Virus record (IMG/VR): IMGVR_UViG_2740892236_000007
Length of the DNA stretch: 14,507 bases
Origin: a virus
Taxonomy: Duplodnaviria; Heunggongvirae; Uroviricota; Caudoviricetes
Reading direction: 5' to 3' (one strand)
The first letter of the stretch is position 1, and the number at the start of each line of letters is the position of its first letter. Shown piece after piece: positions 1 through 14,507 of this stretch. The translations under genes and the position numbers were made by a program. The notes under the pieces were generated by a model, which saw only the letters and a program-made list of their open reading frames with translations, did no database searches and was not told the origin of the DNA.

Positions 1-71
1 ACCAAAGCATGACATCTCTGTTTCGCACCGAAGGTGACACTTCTGCTTTGCGTTGACAGGAGAAGCAGGCT

Positions 72-227
72 ATGAAGCAGCAAAAGGCGATGTTAATCGC
101 CCTGATCGTCATCTGTTTAACCGTCATAGTGACGGCACTGGTAACGAGGAAAGACCTCTGCGAGGTACGAATCCGAACCGGCCAGACGGAGGTCGCTGTC
201 TTCACAGCTTACGAACCTGAGGAGTAA
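72..227 (+). CDS. hokD: Hok-family type I toxin, 51 aa (HokD/RelF-like)
   Basis: ATG 72, TAA 225-227; translation MKQQKAMLIALIVICLTVIVTALVTRKDLCEVRIRTGQTEVAVFTAYEPEE, a hydrophobic helix plus charged tail. Below the ORF-track size cutoff, found by manual reading. A short upstream frame (MTSLFRTEGDTSALR, stop at 55-57) resembles a mok-type leader. Confidence 0.85.
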   Translation: MKQQKAMLIALIVICLTVIVTALVTRKDLCEVRIRTGQTEVAVFTAYEPEE

Positions 228-295
228 GAGACCCGGCGGGGGAGAAATCCCTCGCCACCTCTGATGTGGCAGGCATCCTCAACGCACCCGCACTT

Positions 296-320
296 AACCC
301 GCTTCGGCGGGTTTTTGTTT
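296..320 (+). terminator. Rho-independent terminator after hok-like gene
   Basis: Stem AACCCGC (296-302) / GCGGGTT (307-313) with TTCG loop, followed by a T-run. Confidence 0.6.
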
Positions 321-335
321 TTATTTTCAACGCGT

Positions 336-365
336 TTGAAGTTCTGGACGGTGCCGGAATAGAAT
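336..365 (+). promoter_or_regulatory. Candidate sigma70 promoter upstream of rem
   Basis: TTGAAG (336-341), 18-nt spacer, TAGAAT (360-365); pattern match only. Confidence 0.35.
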
Positions 366-443
366 CAAAAATACTTAAGTAGCGCGCAGGGATAAGAGGG
401 ATGGTCCCTTAAAGGGGAGAGCTAATTATCCGGAAGGATTCTG

Positions 444-695
444 ATGATGAACATCGAAGAACTGCGTAAAATTTTTTGTGAAGATGGCCTCTATGCTGTG
501 TGCGTTGAAAATGGAAATCTTGTTAGTCATTACCGCATTATGTGTTTGCGAAAGAATGGGGCTGCGTTAATTAATTTTGTGGATGCTCGGGTCACGGACG
601 GATTTATCTTGCGCGAAGGTGAGTTTGTCACTTCATTACAGGCATTGAAAGAGATCGGAATAAAAGCTGGCTTTTCTGCTTTTTCAGGAGAATAA
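444..695 (+). CDS. rem: Rem-like small prophage protein, 83 aa
   Basis: ORF with SD GGAAGGA 6 nt upstream; translation MMNIEELRKIFCEDGLYAVC... matches recalled Rem; synteny hok-rem-ydfU as in Qin-type prophages. Confidence 0.8.
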   Translation: MMNIEELRKIFCEDGLYAVCVENGNLVSHYRIMCLRKNGAALINFVDARVTDGFILREGEFVTSLQALKEIGIKAGFSAFSGE

Positions 696-761
696 ACTCA
701 TCTACAATCTTGCGCGGGGCTGAACTCCCGCTGAGTAACACCGTGCCACCGGAGAAAACCG

Positions 762-1040
762 ATGGCACGCAACGCAAAATATTACAATTCTGATAATTCG
801 CCCGTTCTTGCCTGCACGCACGGGCGGTATTCTCACGCATTCAAGTCTGAATGGTTCCAGCACCCTCCATGCACTGCAGAACAGGCCGAATGGCTGATTC
901 ATTCTTACCGCAGGCGCGGGTTCGAGGTTAAGAAAGCTCTCAGTCTCGACTATCGGCACTGGATAATCTCTGTCAGGCTGCCTTATTCCGAACGCCCACC
1001 ACGTGCGTCCCGCACTTTCCAGCAACGGATCTGGAGGTAA
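762..1040 (+). CDS. Hypothetical protein, 92 aa, translationally coupled to the downstream DUF968 gene
   Basis: SD GGAGAAAA before ATG 762; stop TAA 1038-1040 lies between SD GGAGG (1033-1037) and the GTG 1042 start of the next gene; family not recognised. Confidence 0.45.
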   Translation: MARNAKYYNSDNSPVLACTHGRYSHAFKSEWFQHPPCTAEQAEWLIHSYRRRGFEVKKALSLDYRHWIISVRLPYSERPPRASRTFQQRIWR

Positions 1041-1041
1041 C

Positions 1042-2091
1042 GTGCGGGTATTACTTAGACCTGTTCTGGTGCCTGAGCTTGGGCTGGTGGTCCTTAAGCC
1101 GGGCCGTGAATCCATACAGATATTTCATAATCCTCGAGTGCTGGTGGAACCGGAACCAAAAAGCATGCGTAATCTGCCATCCGGAGTCGTTCCTGCCGTT
1201 CGCCAGCCGCTGGCGGAAGACAAAACATTGCTGCCGTTTTTTAGTAACGAACGGGTGATTCGTGCTGCTGGCGGCGTTGGCGCATTGTCCGACTGGCTAT
1301 TACGTCATGTTACATCCTGCCAGTGGCCTAATGGCGATTACCATCACACTGAAACAGTCATTCACCGTTATGGTACCGGCGCAATGGTGTTGTGCTGGCA
1401 CTGCGACAACCAACTGCGTGACCAGACATCGGAATCACTGGAGCTGCTTGCTCAACAAAATCTGACAGCATGGGTGATTGACGTCATCCGTCACGCAATA
1501 AGCGGTACGCAGGAGCGGGAATTATCTTTGGCTGAATTATCCTGGTGGGCGGTCTGCAATCAGGTGGTGGATGCACTACCTGAGGCTGTATCGCGTCGTT
1601 CGCTGGGATTACCAGCGGAAAAAATCTGCTCGGTGTACCGCGAAAGCGACATCGTACCGGGAGAGCAGACCGCCACCAGCATATTGAAACAACGCACAAA
1701 AAATCTTGCACCGTTGCCTTACGCCCACCAGCAACAAAAATCACCACAGGAAAAGACGGTGGTAAGCATCACCGTTGATCCAGAGTCTCCGGAATCTTTC
1801 ATGAAGCTGCCTAAACGTCGCCGCTGGGTTAAGGAGAAATACACACGTTGGGTTAAGACACAGCCGTGTGCTTGCTGCGGTATGCCAGCCGACGATCCGC
1901 ATCATCTGATTGGTCACGGGCAGGGCGGAATGGGAACAAAAGCACATGATCTCTTTGTGTTGCCTTTGTGCAGAAAGCATCACAACGAGCTGCATACGGA
2001 TACAGTGGCATTTGAAGATAAGTATGGCTCCCAACTGGAGCTGATATTTCGTTTTATCGATCGCGAGCTGGCAATTGGCGTACTGGCGTAA
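1042..2091 (+). CDS. ydfU: DUF968-family protein with HNH-like Cys/His motif (YdfU-like), 349 aa from GTG
   Basis: Long ORF (track 1003..2091); preferred start GTG 1042 with SD GGAGG; C-terminal CACCG...HH...C..HHNELH motif; position between rem and Q. Confidence 0.8.
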   Translation: MRVLLRPVLVPELGLVVLKPGRESIQIFHNPRVLVEPEPKSMRNLPSGVVPAVRQPLAEDKTLLPFFSNERVIRAAGGVGALSDWLLRHVTSCQWPNGDYHHTETVIHRYGTGAMVLCWHCDNQLRDQTSESLELLAQQNLTAWVIDVIRHAISGTQERELSLAELSWWAVCNQVVDALPEAVSRRSLGLPAEKICSVYRESDIVPGEQTATSILKQRTKNLAPLPYAHQQQKSPQEKTVVSITVDPESPESFMKLPKRRRWVKEKYTRWVKTQPCACCGMPADDPHHLIGHGQGGMGTKAHDLFVLPLCRKHHNELHTDTVAFEDKYGSQLELIFRFIDRELAIGVLA

Positions 2092-2104
2092 GTGGAGAAC
2101 GAGC

Positions 2105-2857
2105 ATGAACCTTGAAGCCTTACCAAAATATTACTCCCCAAAATCTCCAAAATTGAGCGATGACGCTCCAGCGACAGGCACCGGTTGTTTAACAATTACG
2201 GATGTAATGGCAGCGCAGGGGATGGTGCAGTCGAAAGCACCACTTGGGTTGGCCTTATTTCTGGCAAAAGTTGGTGTTCAGGACCCTCAGTTTGCGATTG
2301 AAGGCCTGCTAAATTACGCGATGGCACTGGATAACCCGACATTGAACAAATTGAGTGAAGAAATCCGGTTACAGATTATTCCTTACCTCGTGAGTTTTGC
2401 CTTTGCTGATTACTCCAGGTCTGCGGCAAGTAAGGCTCGCTGTGAGCATTGTTCAGGTACGGGATTTTATAATGTATTGCGCGAAGTGGTGAAACACTAC
2501 AGACGCGGGGAATCTGTAATCAAGGAAGAATGGGTGAAGGAACTATGTCAGCATTGCCATGGTAAGGGCGAAGCCAGCACAGCGTGCAGAGGGTGTAAGG
2601 GTAAAGGGATTGTTCTGGATGAAAAAAGAACCCGGTTTCATGGCGTACCGGTATATAAGATTTGTGGGCGTTGTAATGGAAACCGGTTTAGTCGTTTACC
2701 GACCACGCTGGCACGACGTCATGTCCAGAAGCTGGTACCAGACCTGACCGATTATCAGTGGTATAAGGGGTATGCGGACGTCATTGGTAAACTGGTAACA
2801 AAGTGCTGGCAGGAAGAAGCATACGCGGAAGCGCAATTGAGGAAGGTGACGAGATAA
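2105..2857 (+). CDS. quuQ: Late-gene antitermination protein Q, 250 aa
   Basis: Repeated CxxC..G zinc-finger-like motifs (CEHCSGTG, CQHCHGKG, CRGCKGKG, CGRCNGNR); SD GGAGA before ATG 2105 (track start 2075 is an in-frame upstream ATG overlapping ydfU); followed by promoter/terminator module. Confidence 0.8.
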   Translation: MNLEALPKYYSPKSPKLSDDAPATGTGCLTITDVMAAQGMVQSKAPLGLALFLAKVGVQDPQFAIEGLLNYAMALDNPTLNKLSEEIRLQIIPYLVSFAFADYSRSAASKARCEHCSGTGFYNVLREVVKHYRRGESVIKEEWVKELCQHCHGKGEASTACRGCKGKGIVLDEKRTRFHGVPVYKICGRCNGNRFSRLPTTLARRHVQKLVPDLTDYQWYKGYADVIGKLVTKCWQEEAYAEAQLRKVTR

Positions 2858-2888
2858 ATGATTTTTGCTGAAGATGGCGACATGATGT

Positions 2889-2917
2889 TTGCATTTTTCA
2901 AAAAATATGGATAAAAT
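2889..2917 (+). promoter_or_regulatory. Candidate late promoter (PR'-like) downstream of Q
   Basis: TTGCAT (2889-2894), 17-nt spacer, TAAAAT (2912-2917), about 30 bp after the Q stop; predicted start near 2924. Confidence 0.45.
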
Positions 2918-2962
2918 TTTTTCAACGATGGGCTTTGTATACCCGACGTTAAGAAAAAGTAG

Positions 2963-2990
2963 AAAACCCGCTGATGAGCGGGTTTTGTGC
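2963..2990. terminator. Bidirectional intrinsic terminator (tR'-like on +, cspF terminator on -)
   Basis: AAAACCCGC / GCGGGTTTT stem with TGATGA loop; A-run upstream and T-run downstream so it can act on both strands. Confidence 0.6.
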
Positions 2991-3278
2991 TTTAAATGGG
3001 GCAATGGTAATGTTGAATCTCATCCCGGGACTCATGTCTGTTAACTTATTATTTAGCTGGTGACTTGGTTATTTGCCTGATGTTTAAAATGTTTTCTTCC
3101 AGTACAATGTCCCTAAACACAATGAGTCTGCTTATTATATTATTAGCAGAGCTATTACGGCCAAAGTACAGCATAAGCTTTTAAAGCCAATCAACCAGTC
3201 ATCAAGACAGACGGGGTTATTCATAAAAACTCTCCATGTGTGATCCGATGGGGCCTGAAATTAAAGCTTTAATATAGC

Positions 3279-3491
3279 TCATGAAAGGTAAACATTGGCA
3301 GCTGAAGGGCCACGCAGACCATTTATCCGGCAAAATTCCACGCGTAATCCGGTGGTAATTTCTTCTGCATCGCGGAGATTGAGCGCTGAAACATGAAGCT
3401 GGACATCGATACGACCATCGGATGGGGTGATAAGACCCTTGCCGCTTTTGCCGTCAAAGGTTTTGACAATTCCTGTCATTTTACGGGACAA
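3279..3491 (-). CDS. cspF: CspA-family cold-shock domain protein, 70 aa (CspF/CspH type)
   Basis: Translation [27 protein letters not shown]...[10 protein letters not shown]; divergent from cspB. Confidence 0.85.
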
Positions 3492-3595
3492 AAAAATTCC
3501 TTAATACTGATAACTTGGCGCACTATACACACGTTCCTGAAGAAAGCTATAGTTTTTTGATGGGGTTGAAGATGGCTGGATGTCTAAAATAAACA

Positions 3596-3624
3596 TTGCT
3601 TCATATGTTCAACTATGCGTTAAT
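3596..3624 (+). promoter_or_regulatory. Candidate cspB promoter (cspA-like)
   Basis: TTGCTT (3596-3601), 17-nt spacer, GTTAAT (3619-3624); predicts a ~160-nt 5' UTR; GCCGAAAGGC upstream-box-like element at ~3761-3770. Confidence 0.45.
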
Positions 3625-3791
3625 GATTGCGTCGGTTTGAAGAACAGACGATATACGAAGTAGTTTACTAAAGCAGTTCTCATTTCAGGTGTTATTCACT
3701 TATTCCTTCTTTGAGTCTCTCCAATTAAGTACGAAGTCGTTTCTGTTATGCAAACCATTTATGCCGAAAGGCTCAAGTTAAGGAATGTAGA

Positions 3792-4007
3792 ATGTCAAAT
3801 AAAATGACTGGTTTAGTAAAATGGTTTAACGCTGATAAAGGTTTCGGCTTTATTTCTCCTGTTGATGGTAGTAAAGATGTGTTTGTGCATTTTTCTGCGA
3901 TTCAGAATGATAATTATCGAACCTTATTTGAAGGTCAAAAGGTTACCTTCTCTATAGAGAGTGGTGCTAAAGGTCCTGCAGCAGCAAATGTCATCATTAC
4001 TGATTAA
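3792..4007 (+). CDS. cspB: Cold-shock protein CspB, 71 aa
   Basis: Translation [71 protein letters not shown] with RNP motifs. Confidence 0.95.
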
Positions 4008-4288
4008 AATTCATCGCTCGTCTGTATACGATAACGAAGAAGGCTGATGCCTGAGTAGAGATACGGACAGAGTAGTGAATATTGGATCTCTTTAATAAAA
4101 AGTAAGGAGGTCCAATACATGAAACAATGGCTAGCATATTTGGCAAAATCTTAATCAGGAAAAGTATGCTAACCATTGTGGTGAAGTGCAGGTTTGCTGC
4201 ATGAATAGTTTTACAGCAGAAGCTAACTGCTGGCATGGCAAAACAAAGTGCGTAAGTGGATGACTCCCACAAAAAGCACCACAATCTC

Positions 4289-4311
4289 AAACCCGCTCAG
4301 GCGGGTTTTTT
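4289..4311 (+). terminator. Rho-independent terminator ending the cspB transcription unit
   Basis: AAACCCGC / GCGGGTTT stem, TCAG loop, T-run. Confidence 0.6.
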
Positions 4312-4370
4312 ATTATCTGCTTTAAATATATTATTAAAATATAAAAAATACTTGTTACTAATAAAATCAA

Positions 4371-4541
4371 TCAGGCTACAGCTTTAAGATTTGTCTGGAA
4401 TACTTTGTTGCAATGAGGGCAGATCAAAAGGGCACCTTTTTGTACTCTTGAAAAACTGTGTTCTGACTCTTGGGTGCAGTTTGGGCAGGAACATTTAACG
4501 AGATAATTACGGCGTGATTTTGAGTTTTTACGTTCTGACAT
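4371..4541 (-). CDS. Small zinc-ribbon-like protein, 56 aa (two CxxC pairs)
   Basis: Preferred internal ATG 4541 with AGGAAAAG SD; MSERKNSKSRRNYLVKCSCPNCTQESEHSFSRVQKGALLICPHCNKVFQTNLKAVA; track ORF 4371..4592. Confidence 0.5.
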   Translation of the reverse strand: MSERKNSKSRRNYLVKCSCPNCTQESEHSFSRVQKGALLICPHCNKVFQTNLKAVA

Positions 4542-4760
4542 AGGCTTTTCCTGTATAAATGGCCGTATACAGTACACTAAATATGAAAACATTTCTCGTA
4601 TTATTATTTTATATATGACTTTCTTTCAAAATAATTACCCACATTTTTAATGTGTATGTTTTTTTAGCGCCGTTGAGAACAACGTGTGCTGTCAAAACTA
4701 CCCCGTAGACTCCGATCTTTTCAAACATATTGCACCATCCGTGTACATCGGGGTGAGGAT

Positions 4761-4976
4761 ATGAAATCAATGGATAAGTTAACAACAGGTGTTGCCTATG
4801 GCACATCGGCGGGTAATGCTGGTTTCTGGGCATTGCAGTTACTCGATAAAGTAACTCCGTCACAGTGGGCTGCAATCGGTGTGCTGGGTAGCCTGGTTTT
4901 TGGCCTGCTGACGTATCTGACAAATCTTTATTTCAAGATTAAAGAAGACAGGCGTAAGGCTGCGAGAGGAGAGTAA
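4761..4976 (+). CDS. essQ: Class II holin (S21-type pinholin), 71 aa, dual-start motif
   Basis: SD GAGGAT before ATG 4761; MKSMDK dual start; two hydrophobic segments and charged C-tail; closely resembles recalled phage 21 S. Track start 4686 is an upstream in-frame ATG. Confidence 0.85.
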
Positions 4977-4980
4977 TCCA

Positions 4981-5288
4981 ATGACTCAAGACTATGAACT
5001 GGTTGTGAAAGGAGTCCGTAATTTTGAGAATAAAGTTACGGTAACTGTAGCCTTACAGGACAAAGAACGCTTTGACGGTGAAATTTTTGACCTGGATGTC
5101 GCCATGGACCGTGTTGAAGGAGCTGCGCTGGAGTTTTATGAGGCAGCAGCCAGAAGGAGCGTCCGGCAAGTCTTCCTGGAAGTAGCAGAAAAATTGTCAG
5201 AAAAAGTTGAGTCTTATCTGCAGCATCAGTACTCCTTTAAGATTGAAAATCCTGCCAATAAGCACGAGCGTCCTCATCATAAATATCT

Positions 5289-5292
<4 letters not shown>
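4981..5292 (+). CDS. ydfR: DUF1327-like protein inserted between holin and endolysin, 103 aa
   Basis: ORF with SD; stop overlaps endolysin start (ATGA at 5289-5292); synteny with Qin ydfR. Confidence 0.8.
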
Positions 5293-6316
<1,024 letters not shown>

Positions 6317-6498
6317 GGTAATATTAAATCGGAACATTTACATCGCGGAATGTAAAATTTAAATAAAAAGGACTCTTCCATGAGCCAAAATTCCTGAAAT
6401 CTTAAGGGTAAGATAAAAGGTCTTAATCAGAATGACACGTTTTATTAATAAATAAAGCCATTCTTTCATTGCTGTGTTTTTCTTTACAAAAGTAATCC

Positions 6499-6527
6499 TT
6501 GCTATGGGTGGTTAATCATGCGTTAAT
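6499..6527 (+). promoter_or_regulatory. Candidate cspI promoter (same architecture as cspB)
   Basis: TTGCTA (6499-6504), 17-nt spacer, GTTAAT (6522-6527); predicts a ~145-nt 5' UTR. Confidence 0.4.
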
Positions 6528-6678
6528 GGTGTTCTGGTTTGTTACAAATTTATCTGAAGCAGTCATTGTTATAATTTTATTATTTGTACCTCTTGAGATT
6601 TCCTTGTTGGTTTTTCTCTCTGATATTTTTTTTCGGACCATTCTGCCCAAGGGCTAATTTCTTCAAAAGGTAATAATT

Positions 6679-6891
6679 ATGTCTAACAAAATGACTGGTT
6701 TAGTGAAATGGTTTAACCCTGAAAAAGGTTTTGGTTTCATCACGCCGAAAGATGGCAGCAAAGATGTGTTTGTCCATTTCTCAGCAATTCAGAGCAACGA
6801 TTTCAAAACATTAACTGAGAATCAGGAAGTTGAATTTGGTATTGAGAACGGACCTAAAGGTCCTGCCGCTGTTCATGTAGTGGCGCTTTGA
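6679..6891 (+). CDS. cspI: Cold-shock protein CspI, 70 aa
   Basis: Translation [70 protein letters not shown]. Confidence 0.95.
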
Positions 6892-7095
6892 GGTAGACAA
6901 TATTACAAACCATATTCACTTTAGATGCCCGTGTTGTCATGGTTCCCAGTATAGAACATCATCTTTTGATGTTTCTGACATGAATCCTTTCGGGGCAAAA
7001 TGTATCTTTTGTAAATCAATGATGATTACATTTGATAATATTTCACAATACTTAAATGCCAGCCGTCTGTCGTTGGATTTAAAAAAGTGAAAATG

Positions 7096-7118
7096 AAGGC
7101 TCCTTCGGGAGCTTTTTT
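7096..7118 (+). terminator. Rho-independent terminator downstream of cspI
   Basis: AAGGCTCC / GGAGCTTT stem with TTCG tetraloop and T-run. Confidence 0.6.
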
Positions 7119-7237
7119 GCTTGGTGTCTATTCGATGGATACTCACATACTACGGTAACATCATGAAAAAAATCATAGTTTTTTTTAACTCTGAACCAGC
7201 AGTGGTAGTGCCAGCGATGACTGGAGTTAACACCATC

Positions 7238-7393
7238 ATGCGTGAATATCCAAATGGCGAAAAAACACACCTTACTGTAATGGCCGCAGGGTTTCCATCT
7301 CTGACCGGAGATCATAAAGTCATTTATGTAGCCGCGGATCGACATGTTACTTCAGAAGAAATTCTGGAAGCAGCAATAAGGCTCTTGAGTTGA
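7238..7393 (+). CDS. ynfN: YnfN-like small protein, 51 aa
   Basis: MREYPNGEKTHLTVMAAGFPSLTGDHKVIYVAADRHVTSEEILEAAIRLLS; in-frame upstream ATGs at 7217 and 7163 are alternative starts. Confidence 0.65.
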   Translation: MREYPNGEKTHLTVMAAGFPSLTGDHKVIYVAADRHVTSEEILEAAIRLLS

Positions 7394-7564
7394 TTTGATG
7401 CTATTGCATTGATAATTCAGGAAAATTCTCTTTGTCTGTTTGTGTAAAATTTAGACTATCGTATGTTGATTATTGCGATGTTTCATCTTATCTTTTACAC
7501 GTTTGCACCATATAATCGACTTACTGTGTAACTGGAAAGTCATAACAGACTAAAAGAGGAAATG

Positions 7565-7738
7565 ATGAATATTGAAAACTTAAAAACAAAAGCAGAAGCA
7601 GATATTTCTGAATATATAACAAAAAAAATTATTGAACTTAAGAAAAAGACCGGGAAAGAAGTTACCAGTATTCAGTTTACCGCACGGGAAAAAATGACGG
7701 GTCTTGAAAGCTATGATGTCAAGATTAATTTAATCTGA
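7565..7738 (+). CDS. gnsB: GnsB-like small protein, 57 aa
   Basis: MNIENLKTKAEADISEYITKKIIELKKKTGKEVTSIQFTAREKMTGLESYDVKINLI; found manually (below track cutoff); an extra in-frame ATG sits at 7562. Confidence 0.8.
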   Translation: MNIENLKTKAEADISEYITKKIIELKKKTGKEVTSIQFTAREKMTGLESYDVKINLI

Positions 7739-7764
7739 TGTATTCAATAATAAAATTTATCCAT

Positions 7765-7790
7765 AAACCTCGTTTTTACGGGGTTTTGTT
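7765..7790 (+). terminator. Putative terminator after gnsB
   Basis: AAACCTCG / CGGGGTTT stem (one G-U pair) followed by TTGTT. Confidence 0.45.
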
Positions 7791-7889
7791 ATATTTGAAT
7801 GGTTCCGAATATCTAAATCACAATTGTTGATGGTTTTTATTAAACCAATGCAGTCCGGCTCAGGAGTGAGAGAAGCCGGACGTTATGGT

Positions 7890-8300
7890 TTAGCGTGGTA
7901 AGATCTGTGTAGTTTTCTGGATGCTTTCAGTAAATAGTAATGAATTATCAAAGGTATAGTAATATCTTTTTTGTTCGTGGATATTTGTAACCCACCGAAA
8001 AACTCCTGCTTTAGCAAGGTTTCTTCTGTATTCCTGAAATGTGATCTCTCTGGATTTCAGCTTATTAGAGGTCGTTTCTATAAGATGCCTATCCTTTGAA
8101 AATTTGACAGACACAATGTTTTTTAGGCCCTTTAATAACACTGTATTATCATTTTTTAATACAATATGAACATTCTCTGTGGCTAAATAGTAAATGTAAT
8201 GTGAGACATTGTGACGTTTTAGCTCAGAATAAAACCATTGATAGTTTAAATCGTTTCGAACTTTATCAAATATTTGTTTAAAAATGACTACCTGATCCAT
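7890..8300 (-). CDS. ydfO: DUF1398-family protein (YdfO/YbcV-like), 136 aa
   Basis: Preferred start is the second ATG (8300) preceded by GGAAGG; track ORF 7890..8315. Confidence 0.8.
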
Positions 8301-8357
8301 AGATAAACCTTCCATGTGATATGAGGGGGCGTAGTCTGCACGATTATCTAAATTGCT

Positions 8358-8591
8358 TCAATCTGGTCTGACCTGTTTTCTGAGCAATTCAGTAATGTCA
8401 CTCTTTTCTTTGTTTGCTTCAGAAGAAACTCTTTTTTCTGAGCACAGTCTCCGGCGGCAGGCTTCAATGACCCAGGCTGAGAAATTCCCGGACCCTTTTT
8501 GCTCAAGAGCGATGTTAATTTGTTCAATCATTTGGTTAGGAAAGCGGATGTTGCGGGTTGTTGTTCTGCGGGTTCTGTTCTTCGTTGACAT
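8358..8591 (-). CDS. ynfO: Small basic protein with RHH-like N-terminus, 77 aa (YnfO-like)
   Basis: MSTKNRTRRTTTRNIRFPNQMIEQINIALEQ... resembles Arc/CopG strand-helix; name from recalled Qin synteny only. Confidence 0.6.
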   Translation of the reverse strand: MSTKNRTRRTTTRNIRFPNQMIEQINIALEQKGSGNFSAWVIEACRRRLCSEKRVSSEANKEKSDITELLRKQVRPD

Positions 8592-8720
8592 GAGGTTGCC
8601 CCGTATTCAGTGTCGCTGATTTGTATTGTCTGAAGTTGTTTTTACGTTAAGTTGATGCAGATCAATTAATACGATACCTGCGTCATAATTGATTATTTGA
8701 CGTGGTTTGATGGCCTCCAC

Positions 8721-8976
8721 GCACGTTGTGATATGTAGATGATAATCATTATCACTTTACGGGTCCTTTCCGGTGATCCGACAGGTTACGGGGCGGCGAC
8801 CTCGCGGGTTTTCGCTATTTATGAAAATTTTCCGGTTTAANNNNNNNNNNGTAGATGCACGTTGTGACATGTAGATGATAATTATTATCATTTTGCGGGT
8901 CCTTTCCGGCGATCCGACAGGTTACGGGGCGGCGACCTCGCGGGTTTTCGCTATTTATGAAAATTTTCCGGTTTAA
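8721..8976. repeat. Two diverged direct copies (~120 bp, about 96 percent identical) of the cos-proximal sequence, separated by N10 (8841-8850)
   Basis: Copy 1 8721-8840 and copy 2 8857-8976 both contain ...CCGACAGGTTACG GGGCGGCGACCTCGCGGGTTTTCGCTATTTATGAAAATTTTCCGGTTTAA with 5 mismatches. Confidence 0.85.
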
Positions 8977-9085
8977 GGTGTTTCCGTTCTTCTTCGTCGT
9001 AACTTAATGTTTTTATTTAAAATACCCCCTGAAAAGAAAGGAAACGACAGGTGCTGAAAGCGGGCTTTTTGGCCTTTGTCGTTTC
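8927..9085 (+). other. Lambda-type cos site: cosN (GGGCGGCGACCT, 8927-8938) plus cosB with Nu1-binding-site-like repeats
   Basis: Near-identity to recalled lambda left end; GTTTCCGTTCTTCTTCG, GAAAGGAAACGACAG and TGTCGTTTCCTTTCTC repeats upstream of nu1. A second cosN copy lies at 8791-8802. Confidence 0.8.
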
Positions 9086-9115
9086 CTTTCTCTGTTTTTG
9101 TCCGTGGAATGAACA

Positions 9116-9373
9116 ATGGAAGTCAACAAAAAGCAGCTGGCTGACATTTTCGGTGCGAGTATCCGTACCATTCAGAACTGGCAGGAACAGGGAATGCCCG
9201 TTCTGCGAGGCGGTGGCAAGGGTAATGAGGTGCTTTATGACTCTGCCGCCGTCATAAAATGGTATGCCGAAAGGGATGCTGAAATTGAGAACGAAAAGCT
9301 GCGCCGGGAAGTTGAAGAACTGCGGCAGGCCAGCGAGACAGATCTCCAGCCACCCGCGCTACGGCATGGGTAA
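9116..9373 (+). pseudogene. Terminase small subunit Nu1 homolog, N-terminal ~77 codons only
   Basis: MEVNKKQLADIFGASIRTIQNWQEQGMPVLRGGGKGNEVLYDSAAVIKWYAERDAEIENEKLRREVEELRQAS matches recalled lambda Nu1 DNA-binding domain; homology ends near 9353, frame closes at 9373. Confidence 0.8.
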
Positions 9374-10603
9374 ACGTCTTGGTGCGGCAGATGTGGATAA
9401 ATGGGCGCTGTATGTCATCGGCCAGTGTTGCGACCAGTCGGTGCCGGACGGTTTTGGCGGCACGGAGCCGCGCATCACCTGTAATGCCTGGCTGACCACA
9501 CAGCGTAAGGCGTGGGATGTTCTCAGTGATTTCTGCTCGGCGATGCGCTGTATGCCGGTATGGAACGGGCAGACGCTGACGTTCGTGCAGGACCGACCAT
9601 CAGATAAGGTGTGGACCTATAACCGCAGTAATGTGGTGATGCCGGATGATGGCGCGCCGTTCCGCTACAGCTTCAGCGCCCTGAAGGACCGCCATAATGC
9701 CGTTGAGGTGAACTGGATTGACCCGGATAACGGCTGGGAGACGGCGACAGAGCTTGTGGAGGACACGCAGGCCATTGCCCGTTACGGTCGTAACGTCACG
9801 AAGATGGATGCCTTTGGCTGTACCAGGCGGGGGCAGGCGCACCGAGCCGGGCTGTGGCTGATTAAAACGGAACTGCTGGAAACGCAGACCGTGGACTTCA
9901 GCGTGGGTGCCGAAGGGCTTCGCCATGTACCAGGTGATGTCATTGAAATCTGTGATGATGACTATGCGGGGATCAGCATCGGCGGGCGCGTGCTGGCGGT
10001 GAACAGCCAGACGCGGACACTGACGCTCGACCGTGAAATCACGCTGCCATCCTCCGGCACCACGCTGATAAGCCTGGTTGACGGGCAGGGTAATCCGGTG
10101 AGCGTGGAGGTCCAGTCCGTCACCGACGGCGTGAAGGTGAAAGTGAGCCGGGTTCCTGACGGCGTTGCCGAGTACAGCGTGTGGGGGCTGAAGCTGCCGA
10201 CGCTGCGTCAGCGCCTGTTCCGCTGTGTGAGTATCCGTGAGAACGATGACGGTACGTATGCCATCACTGCCGTGCAGCATGTACCGGAGAAAGAAGCCAT
10301 CGTGGATAACGGGGCGCACTTTGACGGTGACCAGAGCGGCACGGTGAATGGTGTCACGCCGCCAGCAGTTCAGCACCTGACCGCAGAAGTCACCGCAGAC
10401 AGCGGGGAATACCAGGTGCTGGCGCGCTGGGACACGCCGAAGGTGGTGAAGGGGGTGAGCTTTATGCTTCGCCTGACCGTGGCAGCGGACGACGGCAGTG
10501 AGCGGTTGGTCAGCACGGCCCGGACGACGGAAACCACATATCGCTTCACGCAGCTGGCGCTGGGAAATTACAGGCTGACAGTCCGGGCGGTAAATGCATG
10601 GGG
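9354..10603 (+). pseudogene. Internal fragment of lambda J-like tail tip protein
   Basis: Frame-0 translation (...FRCVSIRENDDGTYAITAVQHVPEKEAIVDNGAHFDG...RAVNAWGQ) matches recalled lambda J; no N- or C-terminus; junctions at ~9353 and ~10604. Confidence 0.8.
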
Positions 10604-10906
10604 ACAGCCGGTGCACATACCCATTCGATGACATTTGTTTCAGGTGGTTCCAGTGGTGCTCCGGGAAGTGGATCACCTGATTATTCTAAATACAGTGTTA
10701 ACACTTCTTCTGCAGGCGCTCATACGCACTCTGTATCGGGTACTGCTGCAAGCGCAGGTGCACACGCATATACTGTCGGTATTGGTGCTCATACGCACTC
10801 CGTTGCGATTGGTTCACATGGACATACCATCACCGTTAACGCTGCTGGTAACGCGGAAAACACCGTCAAAAACATCGCATTTAACTATATTGTGAGGCTT
10901 GCATAA
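10604..10906 (+). pseudogene. Side tail fiber (Stf) C-terminal fragment fused to the J fragment
   Basis: GAHTHS repeats and ...[19 protein letters not shown]-terminus; stop overlaps tfa start (TAATG). Confidence 0.75.
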
Positions 10907-11486
10907 TGGCATTCAGAATGAGTGAACAACCACGGACCATAAAAATTTATAATCTGCTGGCCGGAACTAATGAATTTATTGGTGAAGGTGATGCATATAT
11001 TCCGCCTCATACAGGTCTGCCAGCAAACAGTACCGATATTGCACCGCCAGATATTCCGGCTGGCTTCGTGGCTGTTTTCAACAGTGATGAGTCATCGTGG
11101 CATCTTGTTGAAGACCATCGGGGTAAACAGTTTATGACGTGGCATCAGGGGACGCGTTATTTATTTCTGAACTCGGCTCATTACCGGAAAATGTTACCTG
11201 GTTATCCCCGGAAGGGGAGTTTCAGAAGTGGAACGGCACAGCCTGGGTGAAGGATACGGAAGCAGAAAAACTGTTCCGGATCCGGGAGGTGGAAGAAACA
11301 AAAAACAGCCTGATGCAGGTAGCCAGTGAGCATATAGCGCCGCTTCAGGATGCTGTGGATCTGGAAATCGCAACGGAGGAAGAAACCTTGTTGCTGGAAG
11401 CCTGGAAAAAGTATCGGGTATTGCTGAACCGTGTTGATACGTCAACTGCACAGGATATTGAATGGCCAGTAGCACCTATAGGGTAA
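10906..11486 (+). pseudogene. Tail fiber assembly protein Tfa, disrupted by a 1-nt frameshift near 11128
   Basis: N-terminal part in one frame (10906..11250), C-terminal part [17 protein letters not shown]... in another frame (to 11486). Confidence 0.75.
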
Positions 11487-11570
11487 ATTCGTAATGATTA
11501 CCTAAATACGTTATTCTTTTGTTCAAAAAGTGATTTTGCTATAGATAGGGAGTATGTTCTTGGATTAAGA

Positions 11571-11601
11571 ATAAAAATCGCCATGAAAGAGCTTCATGGC
11601 G
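11571..11601 (-). terminator. Intrinsic-terminator-like hairpin oriented for minus-strand transcripts
   Basis: Perfect 9-bp stem CGCCATGAA / TTCATGGCG with 5-nt loop; on the minus strand it is followed by ATTTTTAT. Confidence 0.4.
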
Positions 11602-12344
11602 AGTACATAAACGTACAAAATGTGATGAAAGTAGAGTGGCGTAAGCCACTATATTAAGATGTGACAATAGCGAAGAAAAGTAAATAACATTTTATGGACG
11701 TTTAATTGTTAATTATAAAAACTAGAGTGCCCGATATTGTTTACCTTGCTTTAAAATAATGTACTCAAACCAAATTTTTGAGCTAAAAGCTCAAATAATA
11801 TAAATGCAATAATAATGTTTAATAAGACAATTAGCTTGCTTTGTATTTTCATTTCGGAATACTGTTAAGTAACTTTGATGACCCTAACAATAGATCGGAA
11901 TTTTCTTAGAGTCAATGGTCACTGTTTTTGCTTGCAAAGCAAATGTTTTGGTGGTTATAAGTTGTCTTAATATAGTCACGCATGCAACTTGTTCCATGCG
12001 GAGATTAAAGATTGGAATATAACGCTAAGATGGAATTAAATTACATTTGCAATAATCAATTTATTATTACTCAATAATTACCGATATTATTATTGTAAAT
12101 TAATCATTAGAGTGCAAAAAGAAATGTAACGGCAAAATAAGAGGACGATAGCTGAGAAAAAAGCGTGCTTTCCCAATCTGGGGCAAATCACGTCTGAATG
12201 ACACCTGAAAACAGGTGGTAGCCTCAAGAAGGCTTGGAATATTCTTCTTTAATGTTATGTAATTCATTGATTTTTCGTGTACGATTTAAAGACATTTATT
12301 CCAAGAAAAATTTTTAACTCTTTGATTTTTCGACTCTGTATCAT

Positions 12345-12406
12345 CGGTCTCGAAAACCGGAGTAGGGGCAACTCTACCGGGGGTTCAAATCCCCCTCTCT
12401 CCGCCA
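12345..12406 (+). tRNA. serU: 3' fragment (~62 nt) of tRNA-Ser(CGA): anticodon arm, long variable arm, T-arm, acceptor 3' strand, CCA; not a complete tRNA
   Basis: CGGTCTCGAAAACCGGAGTAGGGGCAACTCTACCGGGGGTTCAAATCCCCCTCTCTCCGCCA matches the recalled 3' portion of E. coli serU; no 5' half is present upstream. Confidence 0.8.
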
Positions 12407-12990
12407 CTTTATCAATGACTTATCTCCCGACTTCCCGCCTTGCTTTTCCTAAACAGAACAATCGTAGAATATTCTTGAAGGGTTAGATCGTCACTGTTTT
12501 CTGTTCGATACTGTGACATTCAGCACTTGATTCGCTATGGATCTGACAGGAAGGTTTTGAGCGAAAATTTGCAGTTATTCAGTCGTTTTCTTATCGGTCA
12601 CCATTATTCTTTTAGACATTGATCCTACAAAGCTGCCGCAAAGTTGGTGGTGGGAACTGAAGTTGCGTAGAGAAGGGGTCAATACCCGGAGGCAAACATG
12701 GGCTGGCAAAAGTGTAGCGGTATTAGGCGCAGCTATTTAGCCTAGTTATGTTTTATGAAAACTTGATATCATATAAGTGTCTTACTTATTGGCTGTAAAT
12801 AAGTTTTTCCTAAGGAATTGTTTCTTGAGTATCATTTGTAACTGTAACGGAATTTATAATCCTTTGCTTTATTGTTACGGTATTTTTTATCACACCCTAT
12901 TTTTTATATGGTTTTTTATACTGAAGTTTGGCAAAGTGAACTTTATATGCATATACTTCATCCTGGTTTCAGTTAAGTTGGGTGGATGAT

Positions 12991-13734
12991 ATGGCAACTA
13001 CATGTTCAGTTATATTGATTTTGGAGTCCTTTGATGTTTATTTCGGAAAAGAGAGTGTGTTTCTGGAGAGAGGTTCATCTGTACTTGTCGACTCTAGCTC
13101 TAGAGATTTTTTCCTGACATATCCTGAAAGAGTGATAGTGGCGGATTTTGGCGCTGAGTTTATTAGTCGCTATTTGAAAGCTAATAACTTAAGGGATATT
13201 TCTGATTGTAGGGAATATCCATCTTATTTAAAAATAAACTTTGCTGACTTCAGTTTAATTAAAGGATTAATTAGTTGGGCTAATCACTGTGCTGAATACA
13301 TAGAAATTTTTGATGAGTCTATTGCTTTTACATGTCTCTCTGCATTTTCTTCTGAAAAACAATTTGGAGTATTTCTGTTTGAATGTTTGAAAAGCACAGG
13401 GGCTAAAGTTAAAACGATTATTCATACGGATTTATCTGCACCATGGCGTCTTAAGGATATATCATCAAGATTATATCTCAGCGAAAGTTTACTAAAGAGG
13501 AAATTGAAAGAAGAGGGGGTATCATTCAGTAAGATCATACTTGATGAGAGGATGCAAATGGCTGAATATTTACTCAGCACTCGTTGTTATCCTATTAGTA
13601 AAGTAGCTAAGGTCTGTGGTTATGCCAGTGTCTCATACTTTACTTATGTATTTAGACGTTATTTTGGTGTTTCTCCAAGTCAATACTCTCAGAGCAGTTC
13701 AGAAAGTAAAATTCTTACTCACCAGGGAATCTGA
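12991..13734 (+). CDS. AraC/XylS-family transcriptional regulator, AppY/YdeO/GadX-like, 247 aa
   Basis: C-terminal double HTH (WRLKDISSRLYLSESLLKRKLKEEG...CGYASVSYFTYVFRRYFGVSPSQY); N-terminus resembles AppY/YdeO; AT-rich gene; track ORF begins at GTG 12982. Confidence 0.85.
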   Translation: MATTCSVILILESFDVYFGKESVFLERGSSVLVDSSSRDFFLTYPERVIVADFGAEFISRYLKANNLRDISDCREYPSYLKINFADFSLIKGLISWANHCAEYIEIFDESIAFTCLSAFSSEKQFGVFLFECLKSTGAKVKTIIHTDLSAPWRLKDISSRLYLSESLLKRKLKEEGVSFSKIILDERMQMAEYLLSTRCYPISKVAKVCGYASVSYFTYVFRRYFGVSPSQYSQSSSESKILTHQGI

Positions 13735-13740
13735 TCATTG

Positions 13741-14243
13741 TTCTTGCCCCCTTATTTCCAGACAGGGGGTGTATCTTAAGTTAACGTTACCCGCTGACGT
13801 CGATATTCTCGCGGAGAGCGATAACCCAACGCACTGTGCGGATGGTTTTCATTGTAATGTTCGATCGCCACTGCAAGATTATGCAATGCCGTTCTTACAT
13901 TCGGTTTCGGCATGAACGCGATGTAGTCTTCCTTCATCGTTTTCACGAACCTTTCTGCCATTCCATTACTCTGAGGACTGCTGATTGCCGTTGTGCAGGG
14001 CTCCAGATTCAACTCTCTGGCGAACTGCCATGTTTCATGCGCTCTATACGCTGAACCGTTATCTGTCAGCCACTGGATGGACTGTTCCGGTACTTTATCG
14101 CCAAAGCGTTTTTCTATCGCTCCTAACATGACATCCTGCACTGTCGCTTTATCGTAACCTCCCGTGCTTGCGGCCCAGTCTATGGCTTCACGATCGCAAC
14201 AGTCCAGGGCGAACGTAACACGCAGTTTTGAATCGCCACGGGT
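13741..14243 (-). mobile_element. IS3-family (IS2-group-like) remnant: terminal inverted repeat plus transposase OrfB C-terminal half (~155 codons)
   Basis: Minus-strand frame 13776..14243 (...[24 protein letters not shown]...[13 protein letters not shown]...[14 protein letters not shown]) resembles the recalled IS2 InsD C-terminal half; 13741-13765 resembles the recalled IS2 terminal repeat; N-terminal half absent. Confidence 0.75.
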
Positions 14244-14291
14244 TTAACAGACACCTCAGAGTCATTTAAGATGGCTTAAAGAGAGGTGCCC

Positions 14292-14507
14292 ATGAGCGGT
14301 AAGCGTTATCCCGAAGAGTTTAAAACTGAAGCAGTCAAACAGGTTGTTGATCGCGGTTATTCTGTTGCCAGCGTTGCAACACGTCTCGATATCACCACCC
14401 ACAGCCTTTATGCCTGGATAAAGAAGTACGGTCCGGATTACTCCACTTTTTCATCAAGCCAATCCGCCCACCACTGCATCATTTCTCTGCGCTTATCGAG
14501 ATACTGA
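14292..14507 (+). mobile_element. IS3-family OrfA-like N-terminal fragment (HTH), second IS in opposite orientation
   Basis: MSGKRYPEEFKTEAVKQVVDRGYSVASVATRLDITTHSLYAWIKKYGPD fits the IS3-family OrfA N-terminal pattern; downstream part diverges and the window ends at 14507. Confidence 0.6.

Follow-up and report, generated by a model that had tools for sequence, protein, structure and literature searches.

The sequence considered here, termed the window, is the whole 14,507-nucleotide stretch of the IMG/VR virus record IMGVR_UViG_2740892236_000007. At 8927-9373 it carries a cos site of the phage lambda type directly followed by a truncated gene for the small terminase subunit, a homologue of lambda Nu1. 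Positions 1-11469 are 99.7% identical to, and syntenic with, a region of many closed Escherichia coli chromosomes. In the annotation of one of these, NCTC10973, the genes run relB-relE-hokD-rem-ydfU-ydfT-cspF-cspB-essD-ydfR-rrrQ-rzpQ-cspI-gnsB-ydfO-ynfO up to the cos region, which is followed by a "terminase small subunit, missing C-terminus", a "host specificity protein J, missing N- and C-terminus", a tail-fiber scrap, tfaQ, pinQ, and ydfK and then by the chromosomal genes ydfJ and ydfI. The same gene order is found in the annotated Qin locus of K-12 MG1655. Because of this identity, synteny, and shared gene order, the locus is the late, or right, arm of the cryptic prophage Qin; its site beside ydfJ-ydfI is seen in closed relatives, the window itself leaving Qin at about 10900. 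We consider it highly probable that the feature is the cos site plus the 5' stump of the small-terminase gene (nohA, or nohQ) of this defective lambdoid prophage, in a lineage-specific and more decayed allele with no autonomous activity. Elements of this kind are not new, and RefSeq genomes already contain an annotation of this particular allele.

To place the cos site relative to that of lambda, its parts were aligned with lambda bp 1-480, with which window positions 8927-9353 are colinear. The cosN 12-mer GGGCGGCGACCT is present exactly at 8927-8938; there are two exact copies in the window, starting at 8791 and 8927, where chance would give 0.03. About 30 bp upstream lies cosQ, a 7-bp element that we take to sit 30-24 bp upstream of the lambda left end. 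Across 8927-9115, which corresponds to lambda bp 1-190, the alignment shows five differences, C53T, A73G, T102C, a deletion of A137 (delA137), and C151T. With the limits of the R sites, including the extent of R3 and its critical bp 56, 58, and 59, taken from Murialdo and Feiss (PMC9026076) and Feiss et al. (PMC4669245), R3 matches lambda at 15 of 16 bases, R2 at 16 of 16, and R1 at 15 of 16. R2 (9035-9050, minus strand) and R1 (9077-9091) form exact inverted 15-mers. There are no insertions or deletions between cosN and R2, and the cosN-R3 spacing is unchanged; the spacing of cosN and cosB is known to matter (PMC9026076). The site for IHF, I1, lies between R3 and R2 in lambda (PMC4669245), and cosB in the window has all of these elements, R3, the IHF site, R2 in inverted orientation, and R1, correctly spaced from cosN.

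The gene next to the cos site retains one end of the small terminase (TerS). Its product covers positions 1-81 of the 164-position Pfam profile Phage_Nu1 (PF07471; E = 1.4e-48) and matches PDB entries 1J9I (the gpNu1 DNA-binding domain, residues 1-68) and 6HN7 (TerS 1-98) with E of 1e-41 or better. At the N terminus, the winged helix-turn-helix domain for DNA binding and dimerization is present, and both the recognition helix (residues 17-24) and the wing (residues 31-39) are identical to those of lambda. The central oligomerization domain and the C-terminal domain that binds the large subunit, TerL (residues ~100-181), are missing, as the open reading frame (ORF) ends at Nu1 residue 79 plus six foreign residues. 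RefSeq annotates the stub as a pseudogene without its C terminus, and no gene A lies downstream of it in the window.

An earlier reading of the window (the original prediction) had described an orphan cos with intact cosN and cosB-like repeats, a Nu1 gene cut after ~77 residues at about the DNA-binding domain, and no large-terminase gene behind it. These observations are confirmed, with cosN and R2 exact and one change each in R3 and R1, and with fragments of J and stf and a tfa gene in the place of gene A. The truncation does fall roughly at the DNA-binding domain and leaves the winged helix-turn-helix complete, the retained length being 79 Nu1 residues rather than ~77. Qin was not recognized in that reading, and the interpretation built on the observations is supported in part, as set out below. 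The coordinates of all features are collected in Table 1.

Table 1. Features of the cos-Nu1 region and its surroundings in the window. The second remnant is another defective prophage, found in the closed relative JNQH497 (see text).
Feature	Position	Strand	Remarks
Partial cos left of the gap, native Qin flank	8761-8840	+	cosQ GGGTCCT at 8761-8767, cosN at 8791-8802, continuing to lambda bp 50 at the left contig end
Run of 10 N, scaffold gap	8841-8850	.	No interruption in closed genomes, which have one cos
Flank upstream of the main cos	8851-8926	+	Includes cosQ at 8897-8903; non-Qin type
cosQ GGGTCCT	8897-8903	+	Identical to lambda
cosN cohesive-end 12-mer	8927-8938	+	Equals lambda bp 1-12
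cosN-cosB spacer (I2, lambda bp 13-49)	8939-8975	+	Identical to lambda, spacing unchanged
R3 (lambda bp 50-65)	8976-8991	+	C53T at 8979; contact core bp 55-63 and critical bp 56, 58, and 59 unchanged
R3-R2 region with IHF site I1	8992-9034	+	A73G at 8999, T102C at 9028; lambda bp 74-101 unchanged
R2	9035-9050	-	Identical to lambda
1-bp deletion (lambda A137)	between 9062 and 9063		R2-R1 spacer
R1	9076-9091	+	C151T at first base (9076)
Nu1/nohA stub ORF (85 codons)	9116-9373	+	Nu1 codons 1-79 at 9116-9352 (A75T), six out-of-frame codons (PALRHG), stop
Deletion junction	9350-9352	+	3-bp microhomology CCA of the Nu1 and J sides; from alignment with 1332KP Qin
Internal J fragment, pseudogene	9354-10607	+	Lambda J residues 283-700, 95% identical
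stf C-terminal scrap	10700-10906	+	Last ~70 Stf residues
tfa, split by a 1-bp deletion	10906-11486	+	From ~10900 follows the second remnant, not Qin tfaQ

To better establish how the stub arose, its junction was compared with other Qin alleles and counted in 5,426 complete E. coli genomes. The cos-Nu1'-J' junction (primes denote fragments) occurs in 68 of them, its genes being pseudogenes in RefSeq. A less decayed Qin is carried by 1332KP (locus extract 11980-17761), which has an intact 181-residue nohA, a 246-bp fragment of A, the genes L, K, and I, a 2.1-kb fragment of J, the same stf scrap, and tfaQ. Set against the nohA and J sides of this allele, the window junction is a simple deletion of ~3.4 kb in which CCA is all that the two sides have in common. 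The 1332KP type of junction, nohA-A'-L, is found in 7 genomes, and the K-12 type, nohA-stfQ, in 376. These comparisons show that a lambda-like ancestor lost its head and tail genes stepwise, that an intermediate persists in the form of the 1332KP allele with its intact nohA, A fragment, L-K-I, and J fragment, and that a further illegitimate deletion of ~3.4 kb at CCA joined Nu1 codon 79 to J codon 283 while leaving cos untouched.

The Nu1 reading frame ends at a different point in each remnant, after 79, ~119, ~175, or 181 residues, the last of these being untruncated. Because the endpoints are scattered in this way among paralogous remnants, the position of the stub's end just past the DNA-binding domain looks like chance, an accident of illegitimate deletion. 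The notion of a meaningful truncation point at a domain boundary is accordingly not upheld, as other remnants are cut at ~119 or ~175 residues or not at all and the deletion lies at the CCA microhomology.

K-12 Qin is the closest known counterpart. It occupies the same site next to ydfJ, has gnsB, ydfO, and ynfO upstream, and likewise carries a lambda-type cos followed by a Nu1 homologue and tail-fiber remnants. It differs in keeping ~175 Nu1 residues that run, with a 14-residue tail, directly into stfQ (MG1655 locus extract 7799-8368), whereas in the window allele 79 residues run into an internal piece of J. Several bases also distinguish the cosB variant sets of the two. The K-12 and window alleles arose from a fuller ancestor by separate, independent deletions. 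As a separate matter, the Qin of some closed relatives contains an IS3 or other insertion sequence (IS) between ynfN and gnsB (NCTC10973 locus extract 9556-10718) that is absent from the window (~7400-7560).

By its sequence, the cos site is of lambda specificity and would very likely be recognized by the terminase of a helper phage. The isolated and classified Escherichia phage 2H10 carries all five of the differences from lambda, its cos being 1 nucleotide off that of the window in 190, and has intact small- and large-terminase genes directly downstream. Base for base, bp 1-190 of the window cos are identical to those of 1332KP Qin, whose nohA is intact. Competence is argued because of this identity to a Qin with intact nohA, the single-nucleotide distance from viable 2H10, and the absence of any change in R3 bp 55-63 or in the cosN-R3 spacing, and on this basis the site is probably cleavable in trans. 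A cos with at least 95% identity is shared by 87 phage records. Full-length lambda-type Nu1-A pairs of at least 95% identity are present in 3,260 of the 5,426 complete genomes (60%), which suggests that terminases able to recognize the site are common. The Nu1-A packaging module is, in itself, very widespread and well conserved across complete E. coli genomes.

The original prediction went further, proposing that the locus cannot package itself but may be recognized in trans by a helper, with cos-mediated mobilization of the flanking DNA as the outcome. Its first part stands, as the gpA-binding part of Nu1, gene A, and the head genes are all absent, and its second part agrees with the close likeness to the intact-nohA Qin alleles and to viable 2H10. 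The third part, in which the orphan cos is a cis handle that lets a lambda-type helper package the flanking chromosome and pass it on in a form of cos-driven lateral transduction, is very unlikely. An intact cos of lambda specificity, terminases of that type in 60% of complete genomes, and the in situ packaging described for unexcised lambda prophages (Sternberg and Weisberg 1975, as cited in PMC8008629) would all favor it. However, while packaging can be initiated at cosN plus cosB, its termination depends on a cosQ-cosN farther downstream (PMC4669245). Terminases of the cos type cannot make the terminal cut without this second cos, and DNA left uncut prevents the joining of tails (PMC6687093). 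In lambda the second cos has to lie 38-51 kb downstream, that is, in the same orientation and within a headful (PMC6687093, PMC4669245).

No such partner was found in JNQH497, a closed relative. There, the 50 kb on the downstream side of the locus (rightward, in the direction of Nu1) contain tfaQ, pinQ, ydfJ, dcp, marRAB, lsr, and hipBA and no second exact cosN. Matches to cosN with two mismatches are at chance level in this interval, three plus the true site making four, against 3.2 expected in shuffled sequence. A second orphan cos of the lineage lies at a distance of 0.88 Mb in inverted orientation, and the locus has no same-orientation partner cos ~38-51 kb downstream in JNQH497. Qin in K-12 presumably lacks the replication and excision functions that would amplify a packaging substrate, and intQ is a pseudogene in the K-12 annotation. 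At most, packaging would start rightward into J'-tfaQ-pinQ-ydfJ and should give immature, tail-less heads rather than transducing particles. Mature transducing particles are not expected because, with no second cos 38-51 kb downstream, packaging would not be properly terminated, and the proposed mobilization of flanking DNA is therefore not borne out. Immature heads and in situ packaging are known from excision-defective, unexcised lambda prophages, according to the account of Sternberg and Weisberg (1975) given in PMC8008629.

Comparison with known cases of cos-dependent packaging points the same way. The doc particles of lambda (Sternberg and Weisberg 1975, cited in PMC8008629) also start from a chromosomal cos without a downstream partner and package via the tail-gene side into host DNA; there, however, the lambda prophage supplies its own terminase and replicates in situ, whereas the relic would need terminase in trans and does not replicate. 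Phage-inducible chromosomal islands (PICIs) such as EcCICFT073, as well as cosmids, resemble the relic in being DNA without a terminase that carries a cos used by the terminase of a helper. Unlike the relic, PICIs excise, replicate, encode Rpp, and have another cosB (PMC6739421, PMC9026076), and in both cosmids and PICIs the cos sites lie on concatemers, at a spacing that allows packaging. We also considered and rejected a satellite, or PICI, identity for the locus, as the neighborhood is plain Qin and cosB is of the helper's own type, not divergent. In the 25 kb around the NCTC10973 locus, no satellite hallmark (integrase, alpA, primase or replication gene, or rpp) is annotated; this result is one of annotation, and not every ORF of the window was run against satellite models. 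Compared with lambda itself, the relic has the same arrangement of cosQ, cosN, spacer, R3, I1, R2, and R1 with five differences in 190 bp, and Nu1 1-79 identical apart from A75T. It differs from lambda in lacking the central oligomerization domain, the gpA-binding C terminus, gene A, and the head genes and in having a single, chromosomal cos rather than one in a concatemer.

We turn to the stub protein. It might be a functional TerS consisting of the DNA-binding domain alone, one that occupies cosB or forms dead-end heterodimers with the subunits of incoming lambda-type phages or that acts as a decoy for satellite Rpp, a reading that we regard as very unlikely. The ORF is open behind its native ribosome-binding region and start codon, the DNA-contacting elements are those of lambda, and a second stub, of ~119 residues, exists in the same lineage. 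Moreover, TerS 1-68 and 1-98 are stable, soluble dimers, and TerS 1-98 binds the satellite protein RppC (PMC6739421). TerL binding, by contrast, requires residues 100-181 (PMC6739421, PMC9026076). The stub, if made, could thus bind cosB or Rpp and could not recruit gpA, as judged from the residues that it retains. Against a function stand the endpoints, which differ in every remnant as random deletions predict, the pseudogene status in RefSeq, and the substitutions relative to lambda, of which there are only two (one synonymous, one not) with no signal of selection. The isolated DNA-binding domain is, moreover, reportedly a weak binder of cos DNA. A promoter and terminator scan of 8300-9500 found nothing above the shuffled background, with two promoter-like sites against 1.2 expected, both in the non-native flank. 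The 85-residue product is most likely unexpressed, or else the inconsequential product of a pseudogene. A bolder form of the idea, that the 85- and ~119-residue stubs are made in late transcription or helper infection and serve as a domesticated decoy against phages, by blocking cosB or by poisoning TerS dimers, or as a sink for Rpp, so that cos-plus-stub modules are retained for a reason, strikes us as highly improbable. If true, an expressed packaging inhibitor of this sort would be a modestly interesting case of prophage domestication.

A closer look at the assembly shows where the window can be taken at face value. A scaffold gap sits 76 bp upstream of cosN, and ~118 bp around cosQ-cosN are duplicated across it (8723-8840 and 8851-8969), with six differences, all upstream of cosN. 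The left flank, from ynfO through cosN to bp 50, is identical to lambda and to every Qin compared (NCTC10973, 1332KP, and MG1655). The right-hand flank, 8851-8926, has six differences from every compared Qin allele and is identical to the sequence upstream of cos in phage 2H10 and in the second remnant of JNQH497. This second defective prophage (3157253-3168460), on the att-lambda side, adjoins ybhB-bioA and is made up of ybcW, ylcI, cos, pieces of Nu1 and stf, tfa, a gene of the AraC family, and IS scraps. Its cos is likewise an orphan of the lambda type, with one substitution in R2 (GGAAGCGAC), and its Nu1 stub of ~119 residues is fused to a tail-fiber fragment (JNQH497 locus positions ~530-1162). 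Because the closed genomes carry a single cos here, with the left flank joined to the right-hand cosB, the duplicate cos is an artifact of contig overlap across a repeat common to the two prophage remnants.

Farther right, the window exits Qin inside a 78-bp stretch common to both remnants, between about 10835 and 10903, and then follows the second remnant, to which 11300-14507 are 100% identical and which lies 0.88 Mb away, in inverted orientation, in JNQH497. Each of the two switches is located in a short stretch of identity, which suggests chimeras of graph assembly; real gene conversion or inversion may also account for them. The cosB-Nu1'-J' segment is unaffected by these switches, as confirmed by the closed genomes. 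That the orphan cos and the Nu1-J junction themselves come from misjoined contigs, as the 10-N gap, the duplicated cos segment, the 76-bp flank from another locus, and the switch to that locus at ~10900 might suggest, can be dismissed, since cosB-Nu1'-J'-stf' (about 8904-10835) is colinear and essentially identical in the 68 closed genomes that carry the junction, several of them NCTC or long-read assemblies, and only the second copy of cos, the flank of 76 bp, and the continuation on the right are suspect.

In the part beyond the switch, the tfa gene was found to be split by a 1-bp deletion in an A-run at ~11125 relative to Qin tfaQ, giving ORFs at 10906-11250 and 11139-11486; the base just upstream differs as well. 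In closed relatives tfaQ is intact (576 bp), and an intact tfa (582 bp) is also annotated in the second remnant. The split may reflect either a sequencing error in the homopolymer or a true frameshift.

Some points weigh against the view of the locus as an inert Qin relic with a competent cos. C53T hits a position at which the three R sites of lambda all have the same base, and delA137 alters the R2-R1 spacing by 1 bp, although both changes are present in 2H10 as well. The putative competence of the site is drawn from sequence identity to working phages. The stub keeps its native Shine-Dalgarno region and start codon, and a product is possible if Qin undergoes Q-dependent late transcription. 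In lambda there is a precedent for defective particles, packaged in situ, that transfer adjacent markers at low frequency, at least as Sternberg and Weisberg (1975) are cited in PMC8008629. Finally, with the switch to another locus at ~10900, the downstream context in the window's own strain is uncertain.

If the relic cos is recognized, recombination appears to be a better-supported consequence than mobilization. A lambda-type terminase, whether from an infecting phage or a resident prophage, would bind cosB and nick cosN, and the likely outcome would be a double-strand break promoting recombination between relic and phage. The defective lambdoid prophage DLP12 offers a parallel. Half of the crossovers between lambda and DLP12 lie next to cos, and terminase breaks at the DLP12 cos have been proposed as the cause (De Paepe et al., PMC3945230); the rescued DLP12 nu1 is functional in lambda hybrids (PMC3945230). 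Like the locus studied here, DLP12 keeps lysis genes, cos, and a Nu1 homologue, and its cos-proximal DNA recombines with infecting lambda (PMC3945230). The two differ in that nohD of DLP12 has its full length, with a fragment of A behind it, whereas here Nu1 is broken, and cos and the upstream late genes are all that could be rescued into a phage.

The cos region of the lineage is itself mosaic. As seen from a comparison of window positions 8700-9115 with lambda, K-12 Qin, and 2H10, a Qin flank identical to lambda lies upstream of a cosB with the variant set of 2H10, and K-12 Qin has a third set, A54, A134, G145, and G176. Such a pattern suggests repeated recombination at or near cos.

Taken as a whole, the locus is an ordinary prophage relic and not a new mobilization device. 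Beyond bookkeeping it has little importance, marking a clean, datable step in the decay of Qin that is found in ~1% of complete E. coli genomes. As the rules of cos packaging now stand, the cos sites of decayed prophages are not vehicles for neighboring genes. Decayed prophages can nevertheless keep a sequence-perfect cos, and such sites are plausible targets for the lambda-type terminases of most E. coli strains and hence plausible hotspots of recombination between phages and prophage relics.

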